A stretch of 64,000 nt of DNA from a virus (IMGVR_UViG_3300032236_000463:2837-66836); one strand, 5' to 3'. Counted from the stretch's first letter, positions 33,292 through 63,374 are shown. Made by a program: numbers and translations. The notes: generated by a model from the letters alone, not told the origin.

Positions 33292-33328
33292 GCCCACCTA
33301 GTAGGTTTCCCCTTCCTGCTAGGTGGGC
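33292..33328 (+). promoter_or_regulatory. 14-bp hairpin with UUUCCCCUU loop immediately upstream of the polA RBS
   Basis: GCCCACCTAGTAGG-TTTCCCCTT-CCTGCTAGGTGGGC, then TTTAGGGGA...ATG. Confidence 0.75.
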
Positions 33329-33342
33329 TTTAGGGGATTTAT

Positions 33343-35322
33343 ATGAATATTATTACTACCATTGACCAATTAAATGAAATGGTCGAACATTATTTAACTC
33401 AAGATGCTTTTGCATTTGACGTAGAAACCGTTGGTGATAACCGCGGGCTTACTCCAATAAATGAAGTGCTGTGGATTACCTTTGCTACGCATGGTCGTTG
33501 CGATGTAATTCCAATGGGTCATCCCAATGGTGACTTTATTGAAGATATCTTTCCGCTAACTGAGGCTGGAGAGAAGCGAGTTGCTGCAGGTCTTACTCCA
33601 CGTGCTAGTGACTACTCAAAAGATAAGAAAAAAGCAGACAAGATTTTTAGCACTCCTCCAGCACAGTTGTACCCAGGTGAAGTGTTTAGTGCACTACGAC
33701 CATTAATGTTTAACATGGACATACTTACTGTAGGTCATAACTTAGTATTTGATTTAACGTCTGTTGCTAAGTACTTTGATGGTGATATTCCATCTGCTCC
33801 ATACTTCGATACGATGATTGGTTCATTCATTATCGATAATAAGAACAAGAATAAGTGCGGTCTCGATGATTGTCTCAAGCGTGAGTTTGGTTATGAGATG
33901 GTCAAGGGCGTTGGTAAAGAAGTAGAGAAGTATTCATTTGATGTAGTAGCAAAATATGCTTACCTAGATGCTAAGTACACATTTTTGCTGTGGAAAAACC
34001 TAGCACCTCGTATTGAGGAAGATAATCTAAAGGTAATTATGGACCTAGAGATGAAAGTTCTAGGGGTCTTGTGCGACATCAAACTAACTGGTTCACCTAT
34101 TGACGTAGAAGAATTAGATAGGCTAGATGCTCAGTTACGGTTGGATATCGAAACAGCTCGAGCTGATATCTTTAGAATTGCACAGAAGCCTTTCAATATT
34201 AATTCTAATAAAGAAAAGCAGTTCATACTTTACGGACCAAAGTCCGAAGGTGGTCGTGGGCTTAAACCTAAATTACTAACTACTGCTGGTCAGAAGAAGT
34301 CTGATGAAGGTAAAGAGATTACCTATGAAGACTACTCTGTAGCCGCTGATGCCCTAGAGCATTACCGAAATGTAGACCCACTAGTAGAAGCCCTACTGAC
34401 ATACGCAGACCTTAATAAATTAAGTACTACATACGTAGTTCCCTACAAAGGTGGGGAAGTAGTTCGTACCACAGGAGGTAAAGAGAGACGTGAACAAAAA
34501 GATAGCCTGCTTATTAGTGGGCGCATCCATTGTGACTTCGTACAACATGGGGCAGAAACAGGGCGGTTCTCCAGCCGTAACCCAAATCTCCAAAACGTAC
34601 CTGCCCCACATACACCACATGGAAAAGCAATTAGAAACCTCTTTTACGCACCAGAAGGATACAAGCTTGTGGTTGCAGACTATTCGCAAATTGAGCCAAG
34701 GATTATTGCGTCTATGTCAGAAGACCCGATTATGATGGATAACTACCTTAACGGTAGGGATATCTATACAACTGTTGGTGAGACTATGGGAGTAGATAGG
34801 CGCGCTGGTAAGACATTGGTTCTTGCTATGGCTTATGGTGTTGGTCCTAATAAGATTGCTGCAGATATAGGCTGTAGTGTTACCGAGGCTCGTACGTTGC
34901 TTGATGACTTCTCTGAGAAGTTCTCCTCAGTTAGTTCTTACCGAGCAAGGGTGCTGGGAGCAACTAAAAAGAAAACACCTAACTACGTTGCTACTATTCT
35001 AGGTCGCCGTAGGTACCTTCCAGAGATTACATCAAAGGACCAGTTCACACGAGCACAGGCAGAACGTCAGGCATTTAATACTCGTATTCAAGGCTCAGCC
35101 GCGGATATTATTAAACTTGCTATGGTTCGAGCACATGAGAATCTTCCAACTGGGGCTAAATTAATCCTTACAGTACATGACGAGTTGGTAACTTTGACTC
35201 CAGATGATAAGGTAGATGAAACAGTGGATGTAATTAGAGAGGCTATGGAGGGTATAGACTTGTTAAGCATACCTTTGGTAGCAGATATTAAAGTAGTACA
35301 ACGATGGGGTGAAGCCAAGTGA
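33343..35322 (+). CDS. polA: Family A DNA polymerase (3'-5' exonuclease + polymerase)
   Basis: FDVET, GHNLVFD, TGRFSS.NPNLQN, ADYSQIEPR, K...L...YG, IQGSAADIIK, VHDEL. Confidence 0.96.
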   Translation: MNIITTIDQLNEMVEHYLTQDAFAFDVETVGDNRGLTPINEVLWITFATHGRCDVIPMGHPNGDFIEDIFPLTEAGEKRVAAGLTPRASDYSKDKKKADKIFSTPPAQLYPGEVFSALRPLMFNMDILTVGHNLVFDLTSVAKYFDGDIPSAPYFDTMIGSFIIDNKNKNKCGLDDCLKREFGYEMVKGVGKEVEKYSFDVVAKYAYLDAKYTFLLWKNLAPRIEEDNLKVIMDLEMKVLGVLCDIKLTGSPIDVEELDRLDAQLRLDIETARADIFRIAQKPFNINSNKEKQFILYGPKSEGGRGLKPKLLTTAGQKKSDEGKEITYEDYSVAADALEHYRNVDPLVEALLTYADLNKLSTTYVVPYKGGEVVRTTGGKERREQKDSLLISGRIHCDFVQHGAETGRFSSRNPNLQNVPAPHTPHGKAIRNLFYAPEGYKLVVADYSQIEPRIIASMSEDPIMMDNYLNGRDIYTTVGETMGVDRRAGKTLVLAMAYGVGPNKIAADIGCSVTEARTLLDDFSEKFSSVSSYRARVLGATKKKTPNYVATILGRRRYLPEITSKDQFTRAQAERQAFNTRIQGSAADIIKLAMVRAHENLPTGAKLILTVHDELVTLTPDDKVDETVDVIREAMEGIDLLSIPLVADIKVVQRWGEAK

Positions 35323-35789
35323 ATTGGAAGTTTTGGAAAAATAAAGAGAACAATGAACTTAATAGTATTGTGGTTGATTCAGAAGTACTACCACTAAGTA
35401 CTTTGTTTCGTTGGTTCTGCTATGACACAGGTGTCACCAATACTAATGAGTTTGCGGAAGCCTTTGGGTTAAACCCTATTAGCCAAGAGGGTGAGGACAT
35501 GGAGCTTGACGAGTCTGCAGACAGGCTAGAGAAGGTAATCCCATATCTATCATTCTTAAATGTTATGTCAGATATCAATGCTATGATTCTGGTAAAGACA
35601 ATGGCTGATGTGCTTCTTAAAAAAGGTCTTGTAGATGAAAATGCTTTAAAGGAGTCTCAGGAAGACCTACTAGATGTATATACAACCATAACTCTTGGTG
35701 CTCTTGTTGGTAGTTTCTCTTCTGCACTAGCATTAGGTATAGTAGTTAATCCAGGAAGTTTTACATCGGAGGTTGATGATGAGTTCTAA
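35319..35789 (+). CDS. Hypothetical protein
   Basis: 156-aa ORF coupled to polA. Confidence 0.6.
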   Translation: MNWKFWKNKENNELNSIVVDSEVLPLSTLFRWFCYDTGVTNTNEFAEAFGLNPISQEGEDMELDESADRLEKVIPYLSFLNVMSDINAMILVKTMADVLLKKGLVDENALKESQEDLLDVYTTITLGALVGSFSSALALGIVVNPGSFTSEVDDEF

Positions 35790-36153
35790 TAATTGGTGGG
35801 CAAGCAAGATGGGTACCACAACCCCAGTACCGTCACGACCAGAACCAATTCCTACATCTCCTGTACCTACACCATATAACCCTACCCCACAGGTGCCCCA
35901 GGAAGCCCCCAGAATGCCTCAGAGCGCCGTAAATGCCTCTAGGTGTCCTGGATGTGGTAGTGGAAACTACGGCTCTACAGACCCTTCTGCAAAGGCTCGT
36001 TGTTATGACTGTGGGTACCCAGTTGTACAGTCAGGTAGTGGTATGGGTAAGGGAATCTCTGGCGGACAGGGTTCTGGACCCGCTCAACCAGCACGTCAAA
36101 TTAATACTGCAAATAACTTTAACCCTCAAACTATTATCGGAAAGATTGAATAA
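35773..36153 (+). CDS. Pro-rich zinc-ribbon protein
   Basis: CPGCGS...CYDCGYP; exact start uncertain. Confidence 0.65.
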   Translation: MMMSSNNWWASKMGTTTPVPSRPEPIPTSPVPTPYNPTPQVPQEAPRMPQSAVNASRCPGCGSGNYGSTDPSAKARCYDCGYPVVQSGSGMGKGISGGQGSGPAQPARQINTANNFNPQTIIGKIE

Positions 36154-37205
36154 TGAATGGTGAACTACTAAAGGTAATCGCAAAACTAAATAAGAAGTTT
36201 GGCGTGGATACTATTGTTCGTGGAGAGGATATCAGGGACGATACTATTGGTCGTATGACTACTGGTTCACTAGCACTAGATGTAATCCTAGGTGGTGGGT
36301 TTCCTACCAACCAGTGGCATGAGATTGTAGGCGAAGCTTCAAATGGTAAGACTGCTGTGGCACTAAAAACTGTAGCAGCAAACCAACAACGCGACCCAGA
36401 GTTCATAACTGTGTGGGTTGCTGCGGAGCAGTGGGTTCCTTCGTATGCAGAGATGTGTGGAGTGGACCTTTCGCGGGTTTATGTGATTTCTACCAATATT
36501 ATGGAAGAAGCATACGAAGCAGTAATTGAATTGGTAGGCACTAAAGAGGTTGACTGTGTTGTTATTGACTCGTTACCCGCGCTAGTGCCTATGGCTGAGG
36601 ACGAGAAGAATATGGATGAGGCTACTGTTGGTCGTGGTGCCTTGCTTACTGGGAAGTTTTTTCGCAAGGTTGGCAAAGCATCCAAGCGGTCCCTTACAGA
36701 ATCTGAGCGTCCTTTCATAGGCATTGTTATCAATCAGTACCGCATGAAGATTGGTGTCATGTATGGTGACCCACGTACTACTCCAGGAGGGGAGGCTAAG
36801 AACTATGCATTCTTTACTAGAATTGAAGTTAAAAGAGATGATTGGTTAGAGGTAGGGACTGGTCAAGAGAAGAAGCGTGTTGGGCAGACAATTAAAATTC
36901 GTACCTTAAAGAACAAGTCAGCCCCACCTTCACAAGTAGCATACCTAGACTTCTATTTTGATAACGGAAATTGTTTTGCAGGTGATTATGATTTCGCTAA
37001 AGAAATTGTCGCACTCGGCATTATTAATAAAGTAATTACCAGAGCAGGTGCCTATTACAGTTACAAAGAACAAAAATGGCAAGGCGCTGAGTCTGTAGTA
37101 AATGCTATCCGAGAAGATATTGACCTTAAGGATGCATTAGATAAAGATGTTCGTGACGCTGTTCGTGCAGCCTCTAAGTATGTTCAGGAAACTAATGAAG
37201 TCTGA
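36153..37205 (+). CDS. recA: RecA-like recombinase
   Basis: TGSLALD.ILGGG.P, GEASNGKT, VIDSL.AL.P, INQ.R.KIGVMYGDP.TTPGG, KNK.APP. Confidence 0.96.
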   Translation: MNGELLKVIAKLNKKFGVDTIVRGEDIRDDTIGRMTTGSLALDVILGGGFPTNQWHEIVGEASNGKTAVALKTVAANQQRDPEFITVWVAAEQWVPSYAEMCGVDLSRVYVISTNIMEEAYEAVIELVGTKEVDCVVIDSLPALVPMAEDEKNMDEATVGRGALLTGKFFRKVGKASKRSLTESERPFIGIVINQYRMKIGVMYGDPRTTPGGEAKNYAFFTRIEVKRDDWLEVGTGQEKKRVGQTIKIRTLKNKSAPPSQVAYLDFYFDNGNCFAGDYDFAKEIVALGIINKVITRAGAYYSYKEQKWQGAESVVNAIREDIDLKDALDKDVRDAVRAASKYVQETNEV

Positions 37206-37527
37206 GGGTCAGAAGCAGTCTAAGAAGCACGAGAATAGGCTGGCTAAGGTAGTTGGTGGAGGAACAGTTGCTGCCTCTGGAGCCTTCTGGAGCCGTAAAG
37301 GTGACGTTAGGTCTAGCGACTTACTTATTGAGCATAAGTGGACAGGAAAGAAACAGGTAACCGTTAAGTCTGATGTTCTTGAAAAGATTGTTAAGGAAGC
37401 AATCCTTGATGGTCGTATGCCTGTTTTAGGGTTCCATCTAAATAACGAAAATTATATAATGCTAGATGAAAATGATTTTCTAGAGATGCGTCAGAAGATT
37501 CAGGAGTGCAGGTGCGCGACCCATTAG
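37195..37527 (+). CDS. PD-(D/E)XK Holliday junction resolvase-like nuclease
   Basis: HE..LA....G....SGA....KGDV......IEHK. Confidence 0.75.
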   Translation: MKSEGQKQSKKHENRLAKVVGGGTVAASGAFWSRKGDVRSSDLLIEHKWTGKKQVTVKSDVLEKIVKEAILDGRMPVLGFHLNNENYIMLDENDFLEMRQKIQECRCATH

Positions 37528-37823
37528 ACATAGAAAGCTGGCGTGCAGACGCTAAGTGTATGGGCATGGATACAGAACTATGGTATCCTCCTAGAGACAA
37601 AGATAAGTATAAGCCTATTGCAGAAGTATCAAAAGGTGTATGCTTTGGACGAGATGGTAAACCTGAGTGCCCAGTACGACTTGAGTGCTTACTATACGCA
37701 GAAAGTATAAATGAAGTGTATGGTATCTGGGGTGGTCTATCTCACAGAGAAAGAAACGCTTTACGAAGAAAAGCAGAGCGTAACAATAAAACGTTAGAAC
37801 AATGGGTCACAGAAAATCAATAA
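37512..37823 (+). CDS. whiB: WhiB-family Fe-S transcription factor
   Basis: W...A.C....E.WYP; four Cys; CPVR.ECL.YA; YGIWGGLS.RER. Confidence 0.93.
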   Translation: MRDPLDIESWRADAKCMGMDTELWYPPRDKDKYKPIAEVSKGVCFGRDGKPECPVRLECLLYAESINEVYGIWGGLSHRERNALRRKAERNNKTLEQWVTENQ

Positions 37824-37832
37824 GGAGAACTA

Positions 37833-38135
37833 ATGAGTGACAAAGAATATACACCGTTTAAGTGTCCAGACTGTAAGGTTTGGTGGAGAGGTGAGACTCA
37901 CAAGTGCGAACCTCCTAGAGTAGCTGTTACAGTAAAGCCTGGCGTTACAGTCGAGGATACAGGCGGAGGTTTTGTTATTAAACCTACTCCGTATACTCCT
38001 TACGTCAAACCTGCAAAATGTAAAATTTGTAATGTTCCATTAGAGAACGCAAAAGCTATGTTTTGCTTTAAACATAAAAACAAGAAATGGGATAAGGGGC
38101 ATGGACATGGTTACAACGAAAAAACCCCATGGTAA
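37833..38135 (+). CDS. Small zinc-binding hypothetical protein
   Basis: CPDC...HKC and CKIC...C..H; AAGGAG RBS. Confidence 0.65.
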   Translation: MSDKEYTPFKCPDCKVWWRGETHKCEPPRVAVTVKPGVTVEDTGGGFVIKPTPYTPYVKPAKCKICNVPLENAKAMFCFKHKNKKWDKGHGHGYNEKTPW

Positions 38136-38982
38136 TCTTAAGAAATTGGTAGACGCAGGTAAGATAGAAACTCGCGTAGTAGGTACGGTAGAGCGTTACC
38201 TATTGTCTAGACCAGCAGATACATCACGTGCTACTAATGTGATTCACCCATCTGCTATGGTCAAGTCTGACTGGTGCCACCGAGCAGAGTACTACACTCT
38301 GCAAGGTGCAACACCTGCCCCATCGAAGTACAAGGCTTCAATGAAGCAACTACTTACCTTTGAAGAGGGTCACCGTATCCACTCCCGTTGGCAAAACTGG
38401 TTTGGTGACATGGGTAAATTACACGGTAAATGGTCTTGCAATGATTGCAGGTCTTCTTTCTGGGATACAAGCCCAGAGGTTCCATGTACATCTTGTGGTA
38501 GTTCTTTAGGGTTTTCATACAAAGAAGTTCCTGTTTATAGCAAAGAGCACGGTATTTCTGGTCATGCTGACGGTTGGTTAAAAGGCTTTGGTGATGACCT
38601 GCTACTTGAGATTAAGTCTGTAGGCGAGGGTACTATTCGTTGGGAAGACCCACACTTCTTACGTGAGCATGGCAATGATTTTAAGAAAGCTTGGGCTGCA
38701 TTACGCCAACCTTTTACAGTTCATATTGCTCAGGCACAGGTGTACATGAAACTCCTTGAGATTATGGACCCAGTAAATCATCCTAAAGAAGCAATCTTTA
38801 TCTACGAGTCTAAGGTAGACCAGTTAGTAAAAGAGTTTGTGGTTCCTAAGAGCGACTTTGGTATTGCCAATTTGTTTGAGGACGCAAAGAACATTATGAT
38901 TGCCATAGAAAAAAAAGAACCACCAAGGTGTAATGTAAATCCTGGTAGTTCCTGCTACAAGTGCGAGGTTTATAATGATTAA
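38101..38982 (+). CDS. Cas4/RecB-like PD-(D/E)XK exonuclease
   Basis: HPS....WCHR, G..IH, GHADG, LEIKS, Q.Q.YM, C-terminal C..C..C. Confidence 0.85.
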   Translation: MDMVTTKKPHGNLKKLVDAGKIETRVVGTVERYLLSRPADTSRATNVIHPSAMVKSDWCHRAEYYTLQGATPAPSKYKASMKQLLTFEEGHRIHSRWQNWFGDMGKLHGKWSCNDCRSSFWDTSPEVPCTSCGSSLGFSYKEVPVYSKEHGISGHADGWLKGFGDDLLLEIKSVGEGTIRWEDPHFLREHGNDFKKAWAALRQPFTVHIAQAQVYMKLLEIMDPVNHPKEAIFIYESKVDQLVKEFVVPKSDFGIANLFEDAKNIMIAIEKKEPPRCNVNPGSSCYKCEVYND

Positions 38983-39463: not shown

Positions 39464-39536
39464 TGTGTGATGTTAGTATTGATATGGAAAAGCTAAAGGA
39501 AGCTTTGGCTAAAAAACAATTGGATAACGAGAAGTA

Positions 39537-40939: not shown

Positions 40940-41000
40940 GGGATTTTTACCTCATAATTGATATAGAAGTAAAATACTCTACTACTATACGAGGTATAAA

Positions 41001-41279
41001 ATGTCTGAAACACCAGATGAGCAAGTACTTAAAGTAAGTGCTGGCTCTAATCCACAGTCTGTGGCATCCGCTATTGCCCACAGTATTTATGAGAACCATA
41101 CCTGTAAAATCCGTGCCGTAGGCGCTGGAGCAGTCAATCAGGCTGTAAAAGCTATTGCTATTGCGCGTGGTTATACAGCCCCAAGAGGTCTAGACCTCAA
41201 GTGTATCCCTGGTTTTGCAAGTATCGAAAGCCATGATGGTCAGATTTCGGCTATTGTTTTCACAATTGTCTCTGATTAA
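41001..41279 (+). CDS. spoVS: SpoVS family protein
   Basis: VLKVSA.SNP.SVA.AIA......I.AVGAGAVNQAVKAIAIARGY.AP.GLDL..IP.F. Confidence 0.92.
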   Translation: MSETPDEQVLKVSAGSNPQSVASAIAHSIYENHTCKIRAVGAGAVNQAVKAIAIARGYTAPRGLDLKCIPGFASIESHDGQISAIVFTIVSD

Positions 41280-50979: not shown

Positions 50980-51431
50980 TATTTGTTGATGGTATTATCC
51001 GTAAAGAAAGAGACCAGTCTGTAATCGTTGACGGTGTGAACCTATACCGTTCCCTAAATGAGACCAATAGAGTACTTCTATTAGCCAAAGATAGGGAGCG
51101 TACAGATATTTGGTTAAAAACTAATAATATGGCTAAAAAACTAGATGATATTATTGGGTACGTAGATAACCCTATCGATGACGCAAGGTATCTAACCGTA
51201 GAGTCACTAAGAAGTAAGGGTAAAATTGATTTTGTTGTTACAGACGATACAGAACTAGCCCTACGTTTCTTAGAAGTAAGTATTCCTGTTCTAATGTTCT
51301 TGAACCCTAAGTACACCAGACCAGAGTTTAGACCAGATGCCCGTGAGGGTGTAAAGAGTTGGTCAAAAATCACTGAAGAGTTGGACAAACAACAAGGGTT
51401 ATATCTAGAGGACCCACGAACGGAGAACTAA
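50967..51431 (+). CDS. HAD-fold-like protein (motif I appears degenerate)
   Basis: VLIFVDGII, W.K.N, and FVVTDD acidic motif IV. Confidence 0.55.
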   Translation: MSVLIFVDGIIRKERDQSVIVDGVNLYRSLNETNRVLLLAKDRERTDIWLKTNNMAKKLDDIIGYVDNPIDDARYLTVESLRSKGKIDFVVTDDTELALRFLEVSIPVLMFLNPKYTRPEFRPDAREGVKSWSKITEELDKQQGLYLEDPRTEN

Positions 51432-52924
51432 TGCGCCTTATTTACTTAGGGGCGGACGTACCTAGTAATAGGGTAATCTTGGAAACAATGGGCATCCAAA
51501 ACGTTGGTGTGTCATTTTGGAGATTAAAACAGCGTGGACTTCCTAAAAATAAAGAGTATTTATTAAGTAATTATTTTAGTCCTTTTATGAATATCCACGT
51601 CCATCCAGGCATACCTGAGAAGACCGTACTCAGTCCGTTAGACCTAGAAGAGTTTATATCTGATTACGAGCATTTCCTTGCAATGAATATGGAAAGAATT
51701 ACTTCTTTTATGGAGGTAGACCATAATATAGTCCCAGAAAGTATGCTAGAGCTTCAGAGAGAGGCTGCCTGGTCAGAGGAAGAGAAGTTCTGGGCGGTAG
51801 TTCGTAAGGATGATACTTACGGAGACCTCGTAGACCTAGCACAAAATTATGATAATATTGCAATTCCTTATGATGTAATTGAGTCTGATACGTCTATGGC
51901 AGCGAAGGTACGGTCAATCAAGACCCAGTATGGTGCACAGTTCCATGCCCTAGCGTGTGCTAAGCCTGATAACTTACGCCAAGTTCCAGTAGAATCCGCA
52001 AGTACCATGTCATGGCTAAGCCCTATGATGCGCGGAGAAACAATCGTATGGGACGGCAATAAGTTAGTTCGATACCCTAAAAAGATGAAAGACCAAGCAA
52101 GACCAAGATACAAGGCTGTCTATGAGAAAGCAGGCTTAGATTTTGATAAAATTATAGATGATGACCCCGTTGAGGTTGCTAAACTAGCCCTCTGGTCATA
52201 TGACCAATTTGAGGAGCGTTTTAACATGGTTAATAATCCATACTTGTCCGCAGAAGAACCATTTGATGATGAGGAGTTATATGATAACACCCCTGAAATG
52301 CATGAGTCAAAAAGTGCGGAAACTACCCCCGTTGTATATGACAAGAGGGGGTCCGACATGCGGAAACTTGAGGTGCGAAATCCACAAGAAATGACCACCT
52401 TGCCCGTGTTCGGAGCGGAGATTAAGACAGTTGTCGAGAAGGATGCGGATGGCAGAGATGTCATTAAAGATATCACAGTCCTACGTTCTAATCAGAACAG
52501 TTTGAGGATGTGCAACACCTGTTTTGTAGCCTCTAATTGCCCTGCTTTTAAGAAGGATAATACCTGTGCGTTCAGTCTACCAGTAGAGGTAAAGACCAAA
52601 GAACAACTATCTGCACTGCTTACTTCTATTATTGAAATGCAGGGTCAAAGGATAGCATTTGCAAGGTTTTCCGAGGAATTAAACGGCGGATATCCTGACC
52701 CAAATACCAGTCAGGAAGTCGATAGATTATTCAAGTTAATCAAGACGATGAAGGATTTGGAAGATAACTCATCATACGTTAAGATGACTGTTGAAGCAAA
52801 AAATGGAAGCGGAGTTTTGTCACAGATTTTTGGTGAGAGGGCTAGCACACTTAACGAATTACCTAACAACGGATTTGACGAAAGCCAGACCACGCGTATA
52901 ATTCAAGATGCCATTGAAGGCTAA
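51431..52924 (+). CDS. TGT/DpdA-like TIM-barrel protein fused to a Cys-rich/helical C-terminal domain
   Basis: FHALAC.KPD.L..VP.ESASTMSW...G resembles the HxxG...S.DS.SW region of phage tRNA-guanine-transglycosylase-like proteins; CNTC....CP......C in the C-terminal part. Confidence 0.5.
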   Translation: MRLIYLGADVPSNRVILETMGIQNVGVSFWRLKQRGLPKNKEYLLSNYFSPFMNIHVHPGIPEKTVLSPLDLEEFISDYEHFLAMNMERITSFMEVDHNIVPESMLELQREAAWSEEEKFWAVVRKDDTYGDLVDLAQNYDNIAIPYDVIESDTSMAAKVRSIKTQYGAQFHALACAKPDNLRQVPVESASTMSWLSPMMRGETIVWDGNKLVRYPKKMKDQARPRYKAVYEKAGLDFDKIIDDDPVEVAKLALWSYDQFEERFNMVNNPYLSAEEPFDDEELYDNTPEMHESKSAETTPVVYDKRGSDMRKLEVRNPQEMTTLPVFGAEIKTVVEKDADGRDVIKDITVLRSNQNSLRMCNTCFVASNCPAFKKDNTCAFSLPVEVKTKEQLSALLTSIIEMQGQRIAFARFSEELNGGYPDPNTSQEVDRLFKLIKTMKDLEDNSSYVKMTVEAKNGSGVLSQIFGERASTLNELPNNGFDESQTTRIIQDAIEG

Positions 52925-55018: not shown

Positions 55019-55030
55019 TATATAAATAAG

Positions 55031-55062
55031 AAAGCCCCCAGCCAATCGGCTGGGGGCTTTTT
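55031..55062. terminator. Bidirectional terminator between convergent genome arms
   Basis: AAAGCCCCCAGCC-aatc-GGCTGGGGGCTTTTT. Confidence 0.92.
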
Positions 55063-55067
55063 CTATA

Positions 55068-55253
55068 TTAGAACTTAATAACTATCTCGTCACCAGTTTT
55101 ATTATGTGGAAACACATCAAAGACAATCACATTTTTTACGCAGTCTACTTGCTCAACAGCATTAATGATATCGTCCTCGTTCCAAGACACTAGGCTGGTA
55201 TCGCTATCATACCCGTCCTCAACTGTCAGAACTAAAAGTACTCTCTTCTTCAT
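55068..55253 (-). CDS. Small hypothetical protein
   Basis: 61 aa with a (GA)n motif upstream. Confidence 0.6.
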   Translation of the reverse strand: MKKRVLLVLTVEDGYDSDTSLVSWNEDDIINAVEQVDCVKNVIVFDVFPHNKTGDEIVIKF

Positions 55254-55452
55254 CTCTCTCTATCTCTCTCTCTTTTACATTATTATGCGAACGTAGTTTT
55301 TTATTTGCCTTACCAATGCTAACCAACTGATTACACAATGGGCAAGGAGTCTTAATTGAATTGGTTCGTGGGTCAATCCACTGAAGGCTATCATCTTGCG
55401 TAGCGTCCATACCAGAACCAAAACATGGGTTAGTAATATGTTTATTTGCCAT
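55219..55452 (-). CDS. Small zinc-binding hypothetical protein
   Basis: C.GSG...CPLC...LRSH. Confidence 0.6.
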   Translation of the reverse strand: MANKHITNPCFGSGMDATQDDSLQWIDPRTNSIKTPCPLCNQLVSIGKANKKLRSHNNVKEREIERDEEESTFSSDS

Positions 55453-55688
55453 TAAATTAACTCTCTCACTTTCATATTATTTCCAATTTCTAATAATAAA
55501 TCTGGTATTGATAAGTTTAGGCTAGAGCAAATACTCTCTAACATATCTGATGAGACCTCTTTAACACCCCGCTCAACTTCGCTTAGGTATCCTAGTGAGA
55601 TAGGTATCTCGCTAGATAACTGCCTAATACTCTTACCTTGTGATTCGCGCTTATCCCTAATTACAGCACCTAGTTCTAATCTATACAA
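55452..55688 (-). CDS. XRE-family HTH regulator, ClgR/PopR-like
   Basis: LG.VIR..R..QG.S.R.L....ISLGYLSEVERG.KE.SS..L..IC..L. Confidence 0.85.
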   Translation of the reverse strand: MYRLELGAVIRDKRESQGKSIRQLSSEIPISLGYLSEVERGVKEVSSDMLESICSSLNLSIPDLLLEIGNNMKVRELI

Positions 55689-56040
55689 GTTTATCTAGAC
55701 CACCTGCACTTGAATCCCAGTTACCGTCTATTACCATTAATGCAATTAAAGCATAGTTTGCTAAATCTACGAAAGAATCCCGCAGCGACTCATTTTCAGG
55801 AGTAACTCCTGTATCTAATAGGTTATTAATACGAGAGACCTTATCAAATATACGGACGCGCAGACCATTTAACGGACCCCCTGGTGCGTTACTTATATTT
55901 TTAGGACCATAATCGTTTTGTTTCTTTATTAACATATTGGTGCACTCGTCCCCAACTTTCCACACAGCATTTATGAACGAACGTGGTACGTTTGGCAACT
56001 CTACAAACGGCAAGTCTTTTATGCTTCTCTCTCTATTCAT
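55681..56040 (-). CDS. DUF1599 / nucleotide-modification-associated domain 1 protein
   Basis: KKQ.DYG..N......GL.VR..DK..R..NL.......ESL.DSF.DLANYA.I. Confidence 0.85.
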   Translation of the reverse strand: MNRERSIKDLPFVELPNVPRSFINAVWKVGDECTNMLIKKQNDYGPKNISNAPGGPLNGLRVRIFDKVSRINNLLDTGVTPENESLRDSFVDLANYALIALMVIDGNWDSSAGGLDKLV

Positions 56041-56048
56041 TATCTCTC

Positions 56049-56228
56049 TCACAATCGGTTTTCATTTACTAGTCTTACTACAACATGGCAAGGGTCGTTA
56101 CCGTTTTCCCAATCAGCAACTTCTTCTTCGTTATCGTATGGTGAACCATCGTGGGTTACGCAATATGGCATGGATATCCAGCCATTTTCTACCCCAACTG
56201 TGAGCCACTCTGATACATCTTTATTCAT
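56049..56228 (-). CDS. Small hypothetical protein (59 aa)
   Basis: MNKDVSEWLTVGVENGWISMPYCVTHDG...DPCHVVVRL; not in the ORF track. Confidence 0.65.
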   Translation of the reverse strand: MNKDVSEWLTVGVENGWISMPYCVTHDGSPYDNEEEVADWENGNDPCHVVVRLVNENRL

Positions 56229-56266
56229 TACTTTTAACCGCCTTCGGGCTTAACCAACACAAACTA

Positions 56267-56707
56267 TTATTCATTATCGTCCCCCAACCATACATAAGGC
56301 AAATCGTCTGGGACATCTCCAAATACAGGAATATAAAAAATAGGGTTCTTTCTAATTAGATTACTTTGGTGCGATAGGTGCAAATGCTCGTTGCCTATGA
56401 AACTTGGTAAAGTGAACTCGTCTGGACAAGTATCTAAATAGTCATAAGTACGGTCAATAAACTCTGGTAGCAGGGTATCTTTGTACCCTCTATCTCTCCA
56501 CTCCTTGCAAATGATTACCCCATATTGCGCCAGAGAGCCCCTGTGACCGCGCCACATCTTAGTCGCTGGGTGATTAGTCCACCCCTTGCTCAATCCGTCT
56601 AGAGCATTTAATATCTGTTTAGTTTCTACTCTCTGCTTACCTAAACGCTTGTAATCAAGCGCGTAGGCAGAGTGAGCAAAGTCTGGATAAGGTAAAAAGG
56701 TTTGCAT
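56267..56707 (-). CDS. Pyrimidine-dimer DNA glycosylase family protein (MSMEG_6728/DenV-like)
   Basis: MQTFLPY.DF..SA..LD.KRLGKQRVE..QI, GW.NHPA..MWRG, SHQSNL.RK, LPYVW. Confidence 0.9.
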   Translation of the reverse strand: MQTFLPYPDFAHSAYALDYKRLGKQRVETKQILNALDGLSKGWTNHPATKMWRGHRGSLAQYGVIICKEWRDRGYKDTLLPEFIDRTYDYLDTCPDEFTLPSFIGNEHLHLSHQSNLIRKNPIFYIPVFGDVPDDLPYVWLGDDNE

Positions 56708-56711
56708 AGTT

Positions 56712-58752
56712 TTACTCCTGTACTTCTGCCATTACAACAATGTAGGTTTCAATATCTACGTTGTTACCGTTCAACTCAAACGCATAGTCCTCTGCCTTGC
56801 TCTCATCAAGAAACAAGGCTGGTACACCGTCCGTACCCTCTTCATCATTAACTACTGCCCAAATATACATATTAGTTCTCTCTCTCTTTAATAATAAAAT
56901 TACCTTTGTTAATACTATCTAAATAGACAGCAAGCACATCTTCTACTAAGCGCGAGCCTTCTTGGTCTGACCACCCATTAAACTCTAGGTAGTCTGCTGG
57001 GTCATATGTATTACCATTATTGAACACCGCGCTCTGGGTATCAATATCTAATTTCCATAGGTCTGTATCTGTATCGTATTTAACTACAAAGTGATGTTGC
57101 ATTATTTTTTCTCCCATACTATTGTTTCCCAAATATTATTGGTAATCTCATTATCATCTAATTCATCACGACCCCAGTCCTTAGTTAATTCTAAGGCTTC
57201 TGCATCGCTACTTGCTTCTACTTCTACTTCCCAAACGGTAGTCTGGGTAAGTTCTAATATGTATTTTGGCATTATTTATTATCTCTCTCTTGGCAGGTTT
57301 TGCAAGGTTGGTTTAGGTCTGGAGTCTCTGCTTTGTAGCAGACACCGCATATATAACTCATACTCATTATAGTTCTTTTACTATTTCTCTCTCGTAATTG
57401 TGCGCGACCCACTCTACCGCGCGCTCGCCTTGACTTTCAGGCTCGTACCCTGTGTATTCATCAACACAGCAGGAAAATAGACAGCACTCCACACAGTACG
57501 CTTCATTGTCCTGCATAGAGTTCTGGCAAGCGTACTCTGCCATACTGTTGTCACACATACAGCAGGTAGTATTCAATAGTTCCTGTTCTGTGTAATCCTT
57601 TAGGTGCTTAATCATTTGGGTGCTCTCCTTGTTTGCAATCAGTACATAGATAAGTATCAATGTCTTTTGTATCCTCAATGCAGTCGCAAAGACAACTACA
57701 AGTTACTATTATTTCCATTAGTTCTCTAGTTCCCCTTCTTCTTCATCAAAGATATTGCGTACTTCACAGATACCTTGTTTTTCTAAATTAGATAATTGTT
57801 TTAGTACTTCTTCTAAATGTTCTGCTTCTACATCTAAACTAATTACATACATATTAATTTACCTCTACGCTTTCATCATAAAGTTCTATGTCATTATCCT
57901 GCCACTCAATAACTCCCGTTCGTGGATTGTCATTCCACTTACGCATGGCTTCCTCTGGCGTTTCCGCCGTAACTAAATAACTAATTATTTGGGTTACCTC
58001 GTATTGCATTATTTACTCCTATTGTTAATTATTTTAATATTCTTTTCTGCAAGAGATACTCTGCTCTCGCAGTCGTTTAGGTAGGTGTGGTTGATACTGT
58101 TACGGTATCTAATGCTTCCCTTGTCATACTGGTTGTCTAGCCACTTGATTAGGGTAGGCAAATAACTAGCCACAACGAACACCTTAGGCTTTTCTGCGCT
58201 CTCCACGTTCCATACAACATAGCGTGCGTCACCGTCATACAAATCGGTTACTTCCCCTTTGTAGTTTGTTCGCTTAAAATGGTGCTTACGTTCTGTTATT
58301 ACATATCCTGTTTTATGAATAGCAATATCAATATCAATATCAGGTTTGGTTTTCATTAGGCGTAGCCCTCGCTTTCATCATCTGAGTAATCATCAGTATC
58401 AACATATAACGGTATAATTTCTTGTTCGTTATCAGAGACTTCGTACGAACCGTCCAACACAAACTGTTCATCGGAAGTGAATCCAATCTTTTTCTTAGCC
58501 AACTTGTTCACCTGTTTCATCTACTAGTAGTACATACTTGTCTGGCAAGTCATTGATATCATCAACACACTTGTTGTAAATATATTCCATAATTAATTCT
58601 TTGTCAATCTCGTCAGGCAAATAGCCCGCGTCAAATAAATCCTCTAGCACAATTCGTACATCATAAGTAACAGCCTTCATAGCAGTCACACGTTCTGGTA
58701 ATTCCTCCATTAACATATCTAACTCCAAACTAATTTCTTTCATTGTTCCCAT
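56712..58752 (-). other. Array of short early ORFs (e.g. 56712-56870, 56872-57102, 57102-57272, 57272-57367, 57367-57615, 58009-58356, 58495-58752)
   Basis: Tightly coupled 30-115 aa acidic or Cys-rich ORFs on the minus strand. Confidence 0.65.
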
Positions 58753-58778
58753 AATAATATAATCCTTAATTGTATAGA

Positions 58779-58829
58779 GTGACGGTACGGATAGTCAGAA
58801 AGGAAGGAAAGACCTATCCGTACCGCCAC
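58779..58829 (-). promoter_or_regulatory. 16-bp hairpin with anti-SD-like loop
   Basis: Minus strand GTGGCGGTACGGATAG-GTCTTTCCTTCCTTTCTGA-CTATCCGTACCGTCAC; one position is a G.U pair on the minus strand only. Confidence 0.75.
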
Positions 58830-58834
58830 GTTTG

Positions 58835-60814
58835 TTACCTGTTGGATAGTGAGCGTACCACGTCACGCGCTACGTTCACAATATCCTTAGGACGATTAAT
58901 CAAAGTAATTGCATGGCAGTTATGTAGCCACCGTTGCATTGACTTCTTTAATTCATCTTTGTCTAATCTATTAGACTGGTATCCATTAGTAATATAAACT
59001 AGATTACTAATAGTACCTTTAATAGAATTGATATTAGTAATTGTTTTATTACACTCGTCCTCGTTGTACCACTCGCCGTCAGTTACAACGAACAACAGTT
59101 TAGTTTTGCGTTTTGTAGCCTTGAATATACTTTCTGCTTCACGCAAGCCCTCAATAGGATTAGTAGAACCACCTGCACCAACGAATCTAAACTCCTGACC
59201 GTTTGCCTTTTCATCGGCAGAGTACAGCAACTTAGTTTCATCATCGAATACATAGACTGTTACTTTAGCATCAATAGTTTCTAATGCTTTCTTGATAGTC
59301 CAAGCAGAGCGACAAGCATCTGGCATCTGACCGTCCATACTGCCAGAGTTATCTATTAGAATAACTGCTTCAATATCAAACGCTTCGTTACCATTGTCCC
59401 AACGGTCAAATAATCTATTAAGATTATTAATATCCATGTTCATAGTCCGTTGAATATTTAACTTGCCACTAGGTAGTTCTCTATGCCAAGCAGGGTCATT
59501 ATCAATCTGTAACTTAATTAACTCATTACCAAACGCACGCGCGTTAGCGCGCTCGTCACCTGATAAATTGTGGCTCTTGTAGGAAGTCTTGCCTACGTTG
59601 TTGAACCTAGTATCTGACTGCTTGATAGCCTGACGCACTTGTCGCACATCTTGTTTAGCCTGTGCAGATTTCATCACATTATCAATCGCTTCGTTAATCA
59701 TATTGACTAAGTGTTCATCTAATGGATTAGCCTGTGTCTCGTTATCAGACTTGGCATTACCACCTGTACCACTACTACCAGCATTGTTAGTAGAGTTACC
59801 GTTAGACTTATCAGTACTGTTATCACCTGACTGTTCTACTAACTGCTCTTGCTCGCCGTCCTTACCCTGTGCGTTCTCAGACGTTTTAGTCTGCGACTTA
59901 ACACTCTCGGTACGACCATTTTTCATAGGCTTACGTTCACCGCAAGTACCGTTTGGGACGTGTATATCATCAATGCCACCGTCACTACCGTTGCCATTGT
60001 TGTAACCGTTATCATCGTCACGCTTTAGATTAAGCAGGTCTGCAAACTGTTCGACCAGTTCGACAGCGCGCTTACCGTCTGACTTAGTGCTAAGGATAAG
60101 GAATCGGTACTCGCTAACAATATCTGATATCTGATTAGCCAAAGTAGCACCAAACTTATTAATAAACTTGTCTGCTAGTGTCTGACGAATATCAATAGGC
60201 AAGTACTTACGACCAGTCATTAATGGAAACAGGGTAGGTAGTACTTTGTCATTCGCATTACTAAGTATATAAGTAAGAGCACTAGACGTTAGCGATATTG
60301 TAGTGCTAGGGAACCGTTCGACCATTAGAGTTTCAATCCGTTGGTCCTCTAGGATATTCCAAGCCTTAACTAATCCCTTTTCCATTAATTGCTTAACTAC
60401 TTCGCTACCTGCGCGTGGAGTCCACAGTAGGTGAGCGACCTCATGATAGTTAATACCGTTAAGACTAATAATAGTTTTATCATCAATGTCTTTTAGTACT
60501 CTATCATTAAGATAGATATTAGTTCCGTCACTCCAAGCAGGGTTATCATTACCTTTTTCAAGCGCACCGAACGTAGCAATACGCACAGATACTTTAGAGT
60601 TAGTAAGAATACTATCGGCAGTCTGATATACACCAGCAATAGCATCAAACCTTTGCGCGCGCTTTTGTTTGTTTTGGGATATTTCGCGTGACAGTTCATC
60701 ACGTTGTTCCCACGACATATCGTTACTAAACTCTGGGTGCTGATGTAACTCCCAATAGTTTGCAGACAAATCCCTAAGAGCATTGGGACGTACTTTAGAT
60801 GTTCTACGAGCCAT
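58835..60814 (-). CDS. VWA-domain protein with N-terminal HEXXH metallopeptidase-like domain (CobT-like)
   Basis: HEVAH...NILEDQRIE; acidic linker; MIDAS motif DNSGSM, GGST, VTDG. Confidence 0.9.
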   Translation of the reverse strand: MARRTSKVRPNALRDLSANYWELHQHPEFSNDMSWEQRDELSREISQNKQKRAQRFDAIAGVYQTADSILTNSKVSVRIATFGALEKGNDNPAWSDGTNIYLNDRVLKDIDDKTIISLNGINYHEVAHLLWTPRAGSEVVKQLMEKGLVKAWNILEDQRIETLMVERFPSTTISLTSSALTYILSNANDKVLPTLFPLMTGRKYLPIDIRQTLADKFINKFGATLANQISDIVSEYRFLILSTKSDGKRAVELVEQFADLLNLKRDDDNGYNNGNGSDGGIDDIHVPNGTCGERKPMKNGRTESVKSQTKTSENAQGKDGEQEQLVEQSGDNSTDKSNGNSTNNAGSSGTGGNAKSDNETQANPLDEHLVNMINEAIDNVMKSAQAKQDVRQVRQAIKQSDTRFNNVGKTSYKSHNLSGDERANARAFGNELIKLQIDNDPAWHRELPSGKLNIQRTMNMDINNLNRLFDRWDNGNEAFDIEAVILIDNSGSMDGQMPDACRSAWTIKKALETIDAKVTVYVFDDETKLLYSADEKANGQEFRFVGAGGSTNPIEGLREAESIFKATKRKTKLLFVVTDGEWYNEDECNKTITNINSIKGTISNLVYITNGYQSNRLDKDELKKSMQRWLHNCHAITLINRPKDIVNVARDVVRSLSNR

Positions 60815-60819
60815 TGTAA

Positions 60820-62169
60820 TTATCCTTTCACTAATTGTTCGATGTTAGCCTTGTAAGTATCCACTACTAACTGGATAGGTGCTTGTTCCGCCATTGGGAA
60901 AGTATTGACGTATGAGTACATCGCGTAATCAATACCTAAGTTATTAATGTTTTTCTGGAACGCTACCAGTGAGCGAGTAGAGATAGGTGTACTAATCTCG
61001 TCCTGCTCGAAACGGTCACGCAACTGCCCAGCCATTTCTCTAATAGCCTTGTTAGGGATTAGTTCCTTTTCGATATCCGCATCGTATGGGAAGTACAACT
61101 GGTGAGCGAAACGGTCACTAAATGCTTCGTTAAGTTCACGAGTACCACGATAGGTAGGGTTCATATCTGCGATGATGAGCAAGTCCTTATGAGCCTTGAT
61201 AACCTCGCCGTCCTTGTCCATTAATTGAATCTCGCGCCTATCATCTAACAGGCTGAACAGTACTGTGCTTACGCGCTCTGGCATAAAGTTCACCTCATTA
61301 AGAAGTAACACTCCACCGTTGCGTACCAAGTCTGTTACTGCACCGTCCTGCCAGCAAAAGTGACCGTCAGATGTAGGGTTATGCTTACCGAATAACTGGC
61401 TTGGTTCTACTCCAATGTGGTTAGATACGTTGTAGTAACGAAGTCCACGCGCAGATGCGTATGCCATGACTGACATAGTTTTGCCTGAACCTGCATGACC
61501 TTTGATTAGTACATTCTGGTGCTCGCGCATAGCAGTATCGAATACGTCAAACTCTGTTAAGCCTGCTACTTTACGATGAATATATTCCTGTGACCACTTG
61601 ATATCTGGAACACTTGCCAAGTCCATTATTGGTGCGGAACCTGCAAATACTGGTTCTCTTACTGTAACAGGCTGATTAGTAGATACTACTGGTGTAGGTT
61701 CTACTGACTCCTGCACAGAATCGGAAATCGGGGTAAGGCTAATAGTCTTATTAGTCATACGCTTATCTACAAGATAGGTAGCAAGATTGATATTATCGCC
61801 ACGTTCAAGAGCATCTACTAAGCCTGCTACTACTACCGCATGGTTATCCTCGTCCTTGTTAGAAAGAGGATTCATATTATCTGTATGTGCAGTAATAGCC
61901 TTGATAGCAATAGGTGTAATCTTGCCATATTGAATAGCAACTTCATCATTAGCAGTAAGACGAATAGCAACTGGCTTGAATATTACTTCTGTACTAGGTA
62001 GCACGAGACTATCTGATACAGGTTTCCAAGCATCTGCACGACCACGACTACCTGTTGATACTCGGTGATATACATCTACTTTATTGGCAGTAGGATTAGG
62101 TACAATTAGTGTCTGTTCCAAACCTAAGCCGTCATTATTTGGGCTTTCTACGAATAGCGCAATAGTCAT
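60820..62169 (-). CDS. MoxR/CbbQ-family AAA+ ATPase with N-terminal extension
   Basis: GHAGSGKT, WQDG.VT, LLLNEVN, MNP.Y.GT.ELNEAF.DRF, ISTRSL. ATG 62169 preferred over GTG 62178 given the AAAGGAAG RBS spacing. Confidence 0.9.
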   Translation of the reverse strand: MTIALFVESPNNDGLGLEQTLIVPNPTANKVDVYHRVSTGSRGRADAWKPVSDSLVLPSTEVIFKPVAIRLTANDEVAIQYGKITPIAIKAITAHTDNMNPLSNKDEDNHAVVVAGLVDALERGDNINLATYLVDKRMTNKTISLTPISDSVQESVEPTPVVSTNQPVTVREPVFAGSAPIMDLASVPDIKWSQEYIHRKVAGLTEFDVFDTAMREHQNVLIKGHAGSGKTMSVMAYASARGLRYYNVSNHIGVEPSQLFGKHNPTSDGHFCWQDGAVTDLVRNGGVLLLNEVNFMPERVSTVLFSLLDDRREIQLMDKDGEVIKAHKDLLIIADMNPTYRGTRELNEAFSDRFAHQLYFPYDADIEKELIPNKAIREMAGQLRDRFEQDEISTPISTRSLVAFQKNINNLGIDYAMYSYVNTFPMAEQAPIQLVVDTYKANIEQLVKG

Positions 62170-62260
62170 ATGCGCCACTTCCTTTCGTTAGTGGCTGTTG
62201 CTCCTTGCAACAACCTGATAAATAAAATATAACACATTAAACTGACAGACCGACAACCTC

Positions 62261-62280
62261 GCTCATTCTAATTAACCTAA
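62261..62280 (-). repeat. 20-bp direct repeat, copy 1 (minus strand TTAGGTTAATTAGAATGAGC), upstream of an early promoter
   Basis: Identical copy at 63972-63991; 12-bp core at 62593-62604. Confidence 0.85.
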
Positions 62281-62399
62281 GCAAAATAATAAGGCTTATA
62301 TCATACTTCTAACGAATAGTCAATAGCGCGCGCCTAGAAAAATAATCGGGGTTTTACTAATTCCACCACCAATCATATAAAAGAATAGATAAGAGTATA

Positions 62400-62723
62400 G
62401 TGTAGGACTCTCTCTCTCTTGCCCCTGCCTGTTATCATATATCTCTCTGCGACCAGTAGTCTCTCGTCTGGTCACGCGAGCAGTCACAGGCTCTCTCTCT
62501 CATTACAGTAGCCTAAACAGGCTTATTACTATCTCTCTCTCCACTGGCGTAGTCTACACTATGGCTCTCTCTTCACCGTAGACTTGACGCACTCTAATTA
62601 ACCTTGTTTGTGTTGGCTGTATATTGCTGATGCTGCGCTAGCAGCACATTCAAGCCGTTTAGCAGCAATATACAGCCAACACAAACAAAACAGCCCTGCT
62701 AGCAGATTGCTAGCAGGGCTGTT
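62400..62723. ncRNA. Candidate structured non-coding RNA / regulatory region with (CT)n tracts and a long inverted repeat
   Basis: No ORF; six CT tracts; + strand -10 boxes at 62396 and 62430; 26-bp inverted repeat at 62604-62688. Confidence 0.4.
62689..62723 (-). terminator. Terminator after 62735-63205 (possibly bidirectional)
   Basis: AACAGCCCTGCTAGCA-gat-TGCTAGCAGGGCTGTT with a T-rich tail on the minus strand. Confidence 0.85.
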
Positions 62724-62734
62724 AAGGACTTGAT

Positions 62735-63205
62735 TTACCAAGAGGCTTGGTAGAGGAAGGCTTCAGAACCACTATTAAGGGCTCTATCTAGGATTTCAAT
62801 GGTCTCTACTAGACTTCCGTAGTAGTATTCATCATAATCCGTACCCCCGAAAAAGAAACCTGACTGTGTAGGTAGTAATTCCTCAGCCTTTTCAGGGTTT
62901 TCTATTACATTTTGGCATATATCACGCAGTTCTTGTAGTTTATATAGCGGTACACCAATAGGCTGGCACTCGTCTACACCGTCTGCCAGTTCTTTTACGA
63001 ACCAATTGTGGATGTGATTGGCTTTGCGCCAGTACCCAACAGGTAGTTCAATGGTTAAACCCGACCAACCGTTAGGCTCAACCTTGTGATTAAAGTCAAG
63101 AACGTTGATAACATTAGAAAACTTCTGGTTTTCAATGGCTTGACCGTCTTTATAATCGTTACGACTTACATATTCTCTTGCACTTAAATACATATCTAGA
63201 CCCAT
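62735..63205 (-). CDS. Conserved phage protein (MGLDMYL family)
   Basis: MGLDMYL...YWRKANHIHNWF...LLPT.SGFFFG...Y.ASW; AAAGGAG RBS. Confidence 0.85.
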   Translation of the reverse strand: MGLDMYLSAREYVSRNDYKDGQAIENQKFSNVINVLDFNHKVEPNGWSGLTIELPVGYWRKANHIHNWFVKELADGVDECQPIGVPLYKLQELRDICQNVIENPEKAEELLPTQSGFFFGGTDYDEYYYGSLVETIEILDRALNSGSEAFLYQASW

Positions 63206-63248
63206 TTTAGTACTCCTTTTTGTAGCGGGCTAATATTAGTTTTATTAA

Positions 63249-63374
63249 GAGTGTAAGGCACAGGACCAACAACGAAACCTATGCCCTACACTCCCCGAAA
63301 GGCGAGTAGGTAGGGGACAGAAACCCTACCTACCCTCATTTGCTAGGAACAACTAAGTCCAAAACTCCTAGCAA
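63249..63374 (-). ncRNA. Three tandem long-stem hairpins with U-rich loops in an intergenic leader
   Basis: Stems at 63339-63374, 63305-63334 and 63249-63293; mismatches on the + strand are G.U pairs on the minus strand. Confidence 0.55.

Follow-up and report, generated by a model that had tools for sequence, protein, structure and literature searches.

Several described systems resemble the RNA hairpins considered here, five of which (H1 to H5) lie in a 64,000-nucleotide (nt) stretch of viral DNA, hereafter the window (bases 2837-66836 of the 66.8-kb IMG/VR virus record IMGVR_UViG_3300032236_000463, which is ~70% complete). In Staphylococcus aureus icaR, the word UCCCCUG within the untranslated stretch at the 3' end (3'-UTR) is complementary to the 5' ribosome-binding site (RBS) UAGGGGG; pairing is proposed to occur in cis or in trans and, according to the authors, blocks ribosome loading and creates a substrate for RNase III (PMC3868564). 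The actinobacterial 6C small RNA (sRNA; RF01066) has C-rich loops that pair with G-rich RBSs, such as the AGGGGGG of panD, without a chaperone, and its targets include the replication gene dnaB (PMC6486639). Among phages, the gene 43 operator of T4 and RB69 consists of 16-18 bases folded into a short hairpin, whose loop is of the UAAC type and to which the family B polymerase binds (PMC3014915), and the cluster K SAS is a conserved 13-base-pair (bp) word at the RBS position of actinophage non-structural genes, about half of the SAS copies being preceded by ESAS, inverted repeats of 17 bp separated by a spacer of 4-13 bp; these elements are described as having no known function, and a translational role has been put forward for them (PMC3203893). 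The literature searched holds no description of loop-addressed hairpins in phages, cluster K SAS/ESAS being the nearest phage feature.

H1, which precedes the gene for a family A DNA polymerase (polA), and H2, which follows a cobT-like gene, share with icaR the layout of a 3' word and a 5' RBS, here recognised from sequence fit: in both cases a pyrimidine word near a presumed 3' end fits the RBS of the same unit (H1 and the first gene of its block, 6 nt; H2 and the cobS-like gene, 9-11 nt). They differ from icaR in that a long, perfect hairpin bears the phage word, in its apical loop, that the blocks contain several genes, and that H1 abuts a second matching site, that of polA. With 6C they have in common C-rich loops with a sequence fit to G-rich RBSs (conserved for H1), very probably an actinobacterial host, and putative targets among replication genes, but each is a single phage-encoded hairpin inside an operon with no Rfam match, whereas 6C is a free-standing sRNA gene with two loops. 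As in the gene 43 operator, a hairpin lies upstream of a phage polymerase gene and the control region reaches the RBS (H1 ends 3 nt before AGGGGA); the polA hairpins, however, have 13-19-bp stems and pyrimidine-rich loops, and the polymerase is of family A. The likeness to SAS/ESAS is an unusual word at the RBS position preceded by an inverted repeat in actinophages, with the difference that SAS/ESAS words are repeated at many genes, while in the present hairpins the stem sequence varies both from site to site and among relatives, the loop alone being fixed, and few genes are concerned (4/85 starts have a G run). Intrinsic terminators resemble H1-H5 in their position at the end of a gene or unit and in their stable G+C-containing stems, but are recognised by a 3-8-nt loop and a U tract, in contrast to the 8-19-nt loops of H1-H5, which no U tract follows. 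We tentatively posit, at a confidence falling a little short of even, that H1 and H2 are hairpins at the 3' ends of gene units whose loops pair with chosen RBSs in the manner of icaR or the 6C RNA.

All five hairpins, first picked out in an earlier note made from the sequence alone, are present between open reading frames (ORFs) and on the strand of the adjoining genes. With stems parsed from Watson-Crick and G.U pairs only, H1 (33292..33328, + strand) has 14 bp including one G.U pair and the loop UUUCCCCUU (33306-33314), and lies between an ORF of 220 amino acids (aa; 32616-33278) and polA (33343-35322, +; Pfam DNA_pol_A, PHROGs). H2 (58779..58829, -) has 16 bp with one G.U pair and a 19-nt loop (58795-58813) containing CUUCCUUUC(U), and begins 8 nt past the stop codon of the cobT-like gene. 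The remaining three form a tandem trio: H5 (63340..63374, -; 10-11 bp, loop of 15 or 13 nt) begins 8 nt past the stop of ORF 63382-63876, H4 is second (63304..63335, -; 12 bp, one G.U pair, 8-nt loop), and H3 is third (63247..63295, -; 18 bp, four G.U pairs, 13-nt loop), before ORF 62735-63205. When each was folded against 200 dinucleotide shuffles, no shuffle was as good as H1 (-28.4 kcal/mol, z -4.8), H2 (-29.7 kcal/mol, z -7.2), H3 (-30.9 kcal/mol, z -7.4) or H4 (-21.6 kcal/mol, z -3.6); H5 (-11.9 kcal/mol, z -1.15) was equalled by 28 of its 200 shuffles and by energy alone is not above chance. UAGG stands close to the loop end of the 5' arm in 5/5 hairpins, as the earlier note had observed, and the pyrimidine fraction of the loops ranges from 0.60 to 1.0.

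The opposite-strand versions of H1, H2, H3 and H4 are shorter or weaker, in line with the proposal that G.U pairs fix each hairpin on the transcribed strand, while H5 is ambiguous in this respect. The hairpins had also been set apart from clear terminators, and in none of the five is the stem followed by a U run (H1 is followed by UUUAGGGG and H2 by a stretch without a U run); the terminator scan called none of the five (0/5) and did call the hairpins at 55031 and 62689, whereas that at 3229, the other reference terminator of the earlier note, lies outside the stretches covered by the scan. A covariance model of H1 with its flanks found only H1 in the window at E <= 1, so the five do not make up one dispersed sequence family as had been suggested, and 'family' can only mean a shared design. 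Rfam returned only two transfer RNAs (tRNAs) over the whole window at the gathering score, and only sub-threshold matches to microRNA-like hairpins at E <= 10 around H1 and at E <= 5 over 58600-63500; the words TGCTAGS and CTAG are not enriched in the window. Since relatives carry compensatory changes in the stems, H1-H5 are genuine RNA structures on the messenger strand, and they are of at least two kinds, H1/H2 and H3-H5.

The conservation of H1 was followed in the best 80 of 128 IMG/VR polA relatives (68-93% identity), which together with the window give 57 unique polA leaders, and a hairpin between the upstream gene and polA is present in 57/57. In a 28-row alignment of H1, 96.8% of the cells are paired versus 69% in shuffles, none of 500 shuffles reaching the observed value, and versus 29-53% in controls with slid partners. 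Stem covariation in relatives, the first check proposed for these elements, is borne out by H1, where 14 of the 15 pairs show changes on both sides, and H2-H4 differ from L084, a metagenome contig with 87% DNA identity to the window, by compensatory or G.U-type stem changes only. Of the 57 leaders, 30 have the longer stem on the sense strand and 9 on the opposite strand, and in 18 the two strands give stems of equal length. The stems of H1 are fully rewritten among relatives, yet CCCC is retained in 38 of the 57 loops and is invariant in these 38, which otherwise vary in length and sequence. Most of the 19 leaders without CCCC come from a single clade, in which the hairpin is an ordinary terminator and the site reads GGAG or AGGA. 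Many relatives also carry a second conserved hairpin of 11-12 bp with a CGCCAA-like loop ~4.1 kb downstream of the polA start (for example L007:7141, L013:5402 and L016:7138).

The loop of H1 is complementary over 6 nt (UCCCCU) to the polA RBS AGGGGA (33332..33337, +), which has H1 3 nt upstream of it and the ATG (33343) 5 nt downstream, and over 6 nt (CCCCUU) to the RBS AAGGGGG (31716..31722, +) of the gene starting at 31728, ahead of which promoter-like hexamers occur at 31660-31701 (+). By this arrangement H1 appears to stand at the 3' end of a three-gene unit (31728-33278), the RBS of the first gene and that of the next gene both matching the loop wording. Among all 85 RBS windows, the best duplex of the H1 loop is with its own polA site (-10.6 kcal/mol). 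A run of at least four G at -20..-4 is found in 4/85 genes of the window, three of them in the H1 block (31728, polA at 33343, and the gene after polA at 35319). The first-gene leader (31690-31727, +) can itself form a 13-bp hairpin with two G.U pairs and the loop UCAC, ending at AAGGGGG and parsed in the identical leader of L002; its layout is like that of H1 before polA but the loop is not pyrimidine.

Loop and sites go together among the relatives. GGGG occurs in the 13-22 nt before the polA start in 36/38 leaders with a CCCC loop versus 0/19 without, the site in CCCC-loop leaders having the form (A)AGGGG(A) at 3-5 nt after the stem with a complementarity of 5-7 nt, and flanking letters extend the fit in various ways (CCCCUAA with UUAGGGG; UAUCCCC with GGGGAUA). 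The first gene of the block likewise has a GGGG-type site in 27 of 32 unique CCCC-loop contexts versus 1 of 10 without CCCC. Scoring the three states (CCCC loop, polA GGGG, first-gene GGGG) jointly over 42 unique contexts gave 27 with all three and 9 with none; in four the loop and the polA site are present and the first-gene site absent, in one only the loop is present, and in one only the first-gene site.

Ten further contigs, reached through cobT relatives, have polA proteins 58-79% identical to that of the window (58-64% in the more distant lineages). Two have class-A-type polA leaders; one has the loop ACCCCUU with the site AAGGGGU, a 7-nt fit reached by 12/1000 shuffles; and in two the loop CUCCUUUCU (CUCCUU) stands with the site AAGGAG, a fit of 6 nt. 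Another has a ACCUCCUUU loop with a poor fit to its site, another a CCCC loop with no visible site, and another a branched hairpin with a pyrimidine-rich internal loop and an AAGGAG site, while the last two have no pyrimidine loop.

The candidate partner of H2 is the cobS-like RBS GAAAGGAAG (62178..62186, -), which shares 9 nt of complementarity with the H2 loop and lies 3.4 kb upstream of H2. Homology places the likely start of the cobS-like gene at ATG 62169-62167 instead of GTG 62178 as listed in the ORF set; that GTG lies inside GAAAGGAAG, and the homologues begin nine bases later. The earlier note had likened this loop to the 3' tail of actinobacterial 16S ribosomal RNA (rRNA); the tail quoted there agrees with what we take to be the actinobacterial sequence, and the H2 loop word differs from it by one letter.

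Scans of viral contigs with single proteins retrieved one distant locus for the CobT-like protein and none for the CobS-like protein, and a scan with a three-sequence alignment was needed to reach 72 cobT loci, of which the 46 better-scoring were examined for hairpins after cobT. In L084 one stem change in H2, A to G, gives a G.U pair, and a single loop change makes the match to the cobS leader 10 nt long instead of 9. L084, L097, L096, L127 and L139 all retain the loop word, and L101 and L138 have variants of it; it persists over a span of 42-86% cobT protein identity while the stem is rewritten. In L097, L096, L127 and L139, whose cobT is 42-43% identical, a 13-16-bp stem of different sequence begins 8-9 nt past the stop and encloses a larger apical region still containing ACUUCCUUUC, and the cobS RBS there is GAAAGGAAG; L097 and L096 differ from each other by three double changes in the stem. 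The fit of loop and leader was scored in 22 of 74 sources (the 72 loci, the window and L084) chosen for a hairpin or high rank, 15 of which passed the filters. The Watson-Crick match of the H2 loop to the source's own cobS leader is 9 nt in the window (reached by 6/500 shuffles) and 9-11 nt in five relatives (0-2/500), and in L101, where the site is GAAAGGGAAG and the loop CUUCCCU, an extra G is matched by an extra C (7 nt, 32/500 shuffles). Seven more distant cobT loci show no fit between loop and cobS leader, and at 34-39% cobT identity the H2-like hairpin is absent or of another type. A weak promoter-like match (9/12 positions) overlaps the 3' arm of H2.

Under the reading we prefer, that of loops pairing with chosen RBSs, H1 (after genes 31728-33278 and before polA) and H2 (after cobS-cobT) would each close a gene block, and their apical loops would present a conserved pyrimidine word resembling the 3' tail of 16S rRNA. 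The H1 word CCCCU(U) would pair with the AGGGG sites of polA and of the block's first gene, and the H2 word CUUCCUUUC with the GAAAGGAAG site of cobS, either from one molecule to another or at long range along a single transcript; both are favoured over local pairing because local pairing of H1 looks sterically strained. Such pairing would reduce translation and might also give RNase III a target, and the long stem probably also marks or protects the 3' end of the transcript. That the hairpins exist and are conserved, that the loop words are kept and that these words complement the RBSs is shown by the sequences; the pairing of loop and RBS, its sign and the transcript-end positions are what we infer. 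A more general proposal, drawn from the same sequence patterns and in our view rather unlikely, is that this freshwater actinophage group marks the 3' ends of its blocks with loops that copy the anti-Shine-Dalgarno tail in block-specific dialects (CCCCUU, CUCCUUUCU, CUUCCUUUC), the matching dialect appearing in the RBS of the gene that opens the block or of the next gene; the finished transcript, or a stable 3' hairpin fragment of it, would in that case exert feedback on how its own block is translated, with no protein and no separate sRNA gene involved.

A number of results weigh against pairing as the function of these loops. When the loops of H1-H5 were compared with all 85 RBS windows there was no excess over shuffled loops (300, 68, 188, 115 and 227 of 300 shuffles, respectively, reached the observed match length), an outcome that the earlier note had itself named as counting against its proposal; tests at single loci are mostly weak too, since the composition of a pyrimidine loop suits it to purine sites. 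Single contexts depart from the rule: L027 and L025 have a CCCC loop with a GGAG-type site, L216 a CCCC loop with no visible site, in L030 the first-gene site is GGGG but the loop lacks CCCC, in L009-L011 and L023 the loop has CCCC but the first-gene site is not GGGG, and the CCUCC loop of L220 fits its own site over 4 nt only. The polA tree shows ~3 changes of loop state and ~4 of RBS state, giving 2-3 independent pairs (sign test p = 1); with so few independent switches a contrast test is impossible, and the link between CCCC and GGGG could reflect shared ancestry. At H2, the cobS site and the loop are mostly both just conserved and do not covary, and the L138 loop, whose 9-nt match to its own leader includes one G.U pair, fits a window-type leader (8 nt) equally well. 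The short distance between H1 and the polA site, a 3-5-nt linker next to a 14-19-bp stem, would furthermore make pairing within one molecule sterically hard. Taken together, the interpretation in the earlier note, of conserved anti-Shine-Dalgarno-like loops complementary to RBSs, is partly supported: it holds for H1 and H2, with the phage's own genes as the matching sites, and fails for H3 and H4, whose loops are not conserved at 87% DNA identity.

It is a substantial possibility, if short of probable, that all five are plain transcript-end hairpins, that is, terminators (either factor-independent ones lacking a U tail or components of Rho-dependent ends), 3' or 5' stabilisers, or RNase processing sites, with C-rich or pyrimidine-rich loops as a habit that, for example, avoids false RBSs or helps Rho, and with the RBS fit as a by-product of composition. 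Other lineages place ordinary hairpins at the same points: one large clade, sister to the CCCC-loop leaders (26/82 tree rows), has a classical terminator before polA (9-12-bp G+C stem, 5-7-nt loop, UUUU), the Streptomyces phage BRock has a 15-bp hairpin there whose loop is unrelated and non-pyrimidine, and ordinary terminators or other hairpins follow cobT elsewhere. The equal performance of shuffled loops on the RBS windows and the free drift of the H3 and H4 loops point in the same direction.

A survey of 173 unique hairpins of at least 12 bp on the anchor-gene strand in all fetched loci (L002-L167) bears on this explanation as well. Runs of at least four C occur in the loops of 43/173 (32 before polA and 11 elsewhere, for example L109:711, L120:1663, L121:34 and L159:7174) and runs of at least four G in 0/173; the mean pyrimidine fraction of the loops is 0.61 versus a background of 0.47, with 70 loops at or above 70% pyrimidine and 21 at or below 30%. 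UAGG near the loop is found in 17/173 versus ~2 expected, mostly in polA homologues, and is no general rule. Several of the C-run loops elsewhere sit in hairpins with a U-rich tail, and C-rich loops may thus be a terminator habit in this phage group. Against plain transcript ends stand the lack of a U tract in any of the five and of any call by the terminator scan; composition alone, moreover, fails to explain an invariant CCCC in 38 otherwise variable loops, or a word of 9-11 nt kept after cobT at 42% protein identity, and the RBSs that fit are the unusual ones, G runs being found in 4/85 genes.

Less probable still, and in our view improbable, is that the hairpins are protein-binding operators in which the loop word (at polA together with the adjacent AGGGG) is the recognition site of a protein from phage or host, as in autogenous repression by the polymerase or binding of a stabilising poly(C)-binding protein. 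The anatomy fits, the stem being free in sequence and both the loop word and the single-stranded neighbour on the 3' side being fixed, and the steric problem of local RNA-RNA pairing does not arise; T4 gp43, which binds a hairpin upstream of its own start together with a sequence overlapping the RBS, offers a precedent (PMC3014915). A protein site, however, need not be complementary to anything, whereas complementarity recurs in several wordings (CCCCUU/AAGGGG, UAUCCCC/GGGGAUA, CUCCUU/AAGGAG and CUUCCUUUC/GAAAGGAAG); in addition, the polymerase is a family A enzyme, not of the T4 type, and no candidate RNA-binding protein was identified.

We regard as very improbable a local pseudoknot switch, in which the H1 loop would pair with the adjacent polA site of the same molecule and hide the RBS. 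The complementarity of 5-7 nt to a site 3-5 nt after the stem in 36/38 CCCC-loop leaders would suit such a switch, and the distant lineages with a linker of 8-9 nt and a longer loop would allow it. In the window and its close relatives, however, a linker of 3-5 nt would, going by known pseudoknot geometry, be too short to span a helix of 14-19 bp unless several basal G-C pairs open, and the partner of H2, 3.4 kb away, would be left unexplained. DNA-level elements (cruciforms, origins, or promoters overlapping the repeats) are hardly credible, the promoter-like match over the 3' arm of H2 being set against G.U pairs and longer stems that favour the sense strand (30 vs 9), one-sided changes in L084 that keep pairing only as RNA on the sense strand, and loops that on the gene strand are C-rich and never G-rich.

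If loops and RBSs do pair, the translation of polA and its neighbours, and of cobS/cobT, would be controlled by one loop word in each case, the odd G-run RBSs of a few phage genes would be explained, and the mechanisms of the icaR-type anti-Shine-Dalgarno 3'-UTR and of C-rich loops (6C, RsaE, RNAIII) would be extended from bacteria to phage operons. The polA hairpin, present in dozens of uncultured lake phages with several dialects of loop and site, amounts to a natural mutant series, and its dialects could serve as a compact part for orthogonal translational control in actinobacteria. Should the reading as plain transcript ends prove right instead, the hairpins would still be well-supported non-canonical transcript-end hairpins, without U tract and with large loops, in low-GC actinophages.

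The tandem set H3-H5 is of a different character. Relative to L084, the stem of H3 has undergone two compensatory and three G.U-type changes, as has that of H4, none of them disruptive, while the loop is changed at 4/13 places in H3 and is not conserved in H4; H5 is identical in L084. Folded together the three reach -68.1 kcal/mol (z -6.8). No such set was found before homologues of the 156-aa gene that follows it, in 0 of 30 loci examined (of 45), and 21 of these have no hairpin of at least 9 bp within 220 nt. Two specific partners were considered and discarded. Pairing of the H3 loop with the AACGAAAGG leader, as the earlier note had it, is a 7-nt match at chance level and is lost in L084 though the leader is retained, and the idea that an arm of H4 copies the GGUAGGUAG leader of ORF 63876 was rejected because that leader is kept in L084 while H4 is rewritten. 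These patterns suggest that H3-H5 are a lineage-specific structured spacer in which the stems matter and the loops do not, for example an element of processing, stability or attenuation.

Other features lie nearby on the same strand. At 62604-62723 (-) a terminator-like 16-bp hairpin (62689-62723) is followed directly by a hairpin with a perfect 26-bp stem (62604-62688), the pair folding at -82 kcal/mol (z -11); the 26-bp stem, whose length suits RNase III, has three compensatory changes relative to L084. A promoter-like word starting AGGTTAATTAGA occurs three times (-), at ~62604-62590, 62278-62261 and 63989-63972, each copy heading a leader. In L084 all copies of this word share the same different 3' half, a concerted change that hints at the site of a phage-specific factor, and the module of terminator, long hairpin and word recurs there just past the right end of the window.

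The window has a G+C content of 39-43%, with genes running on the + strand as far as 55018 and on the - strand from 55068. It encodes a DnaB-like helicase, a primase, a SNF2 helicase, RecA, a class II ribonucleotide reductase, a CobS-like AAA protein, a CobT-like VWA protein and two tRNAs. Family matches were also found for a WhiB-like ORF (37506-37823, +), a SpoVS-like ORF (41001-41279, +) and an ORF resembling queuine tRNA-ribosyltransferase (TGT)/DpdA (51431-52924, +), the last of which suggests DNA base modification. Among relatives, cobT was found in 5/15 contigs that carry polA relatives and the 156-aa ORF in 0/5 such contigs.

A megablast of 33000-36000 and 58400-63900 against cultured phages gave no match. 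At the protein level the closest cultured polA genes are those of Streptomyces phages (41% identity) and the closest cultured CobT-like genes those of Gordonia phages (26-30% identity), and the WhiB family matches only 1/14 control genomes, that of Corynebacterium. The WhiB-like ORF, taken with the Streptomyces and Gordonia phage relatives, supports the premise of an actinobacterial phage made in the earlier note, and the host is very likely an actinobacterium; we infer that it is low-GC and freshwater, placing no reliance on the freshwater label itself.

Two further observations concern the window at large. GA-repeat words (GAGAGAG...) stand at the RBS position of several small - strand ORFs within 55068-57300 (starts 55253, 56870 and 57272) and occur five more times in the ORF-poor stretch between 62179 and 62735 (-). 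The strongest local fold over 60 nt in the window (-35.3 kcal/mol) is at 23961-24020 (-), inside ORF 23723-24625 and on its non-coding strand.

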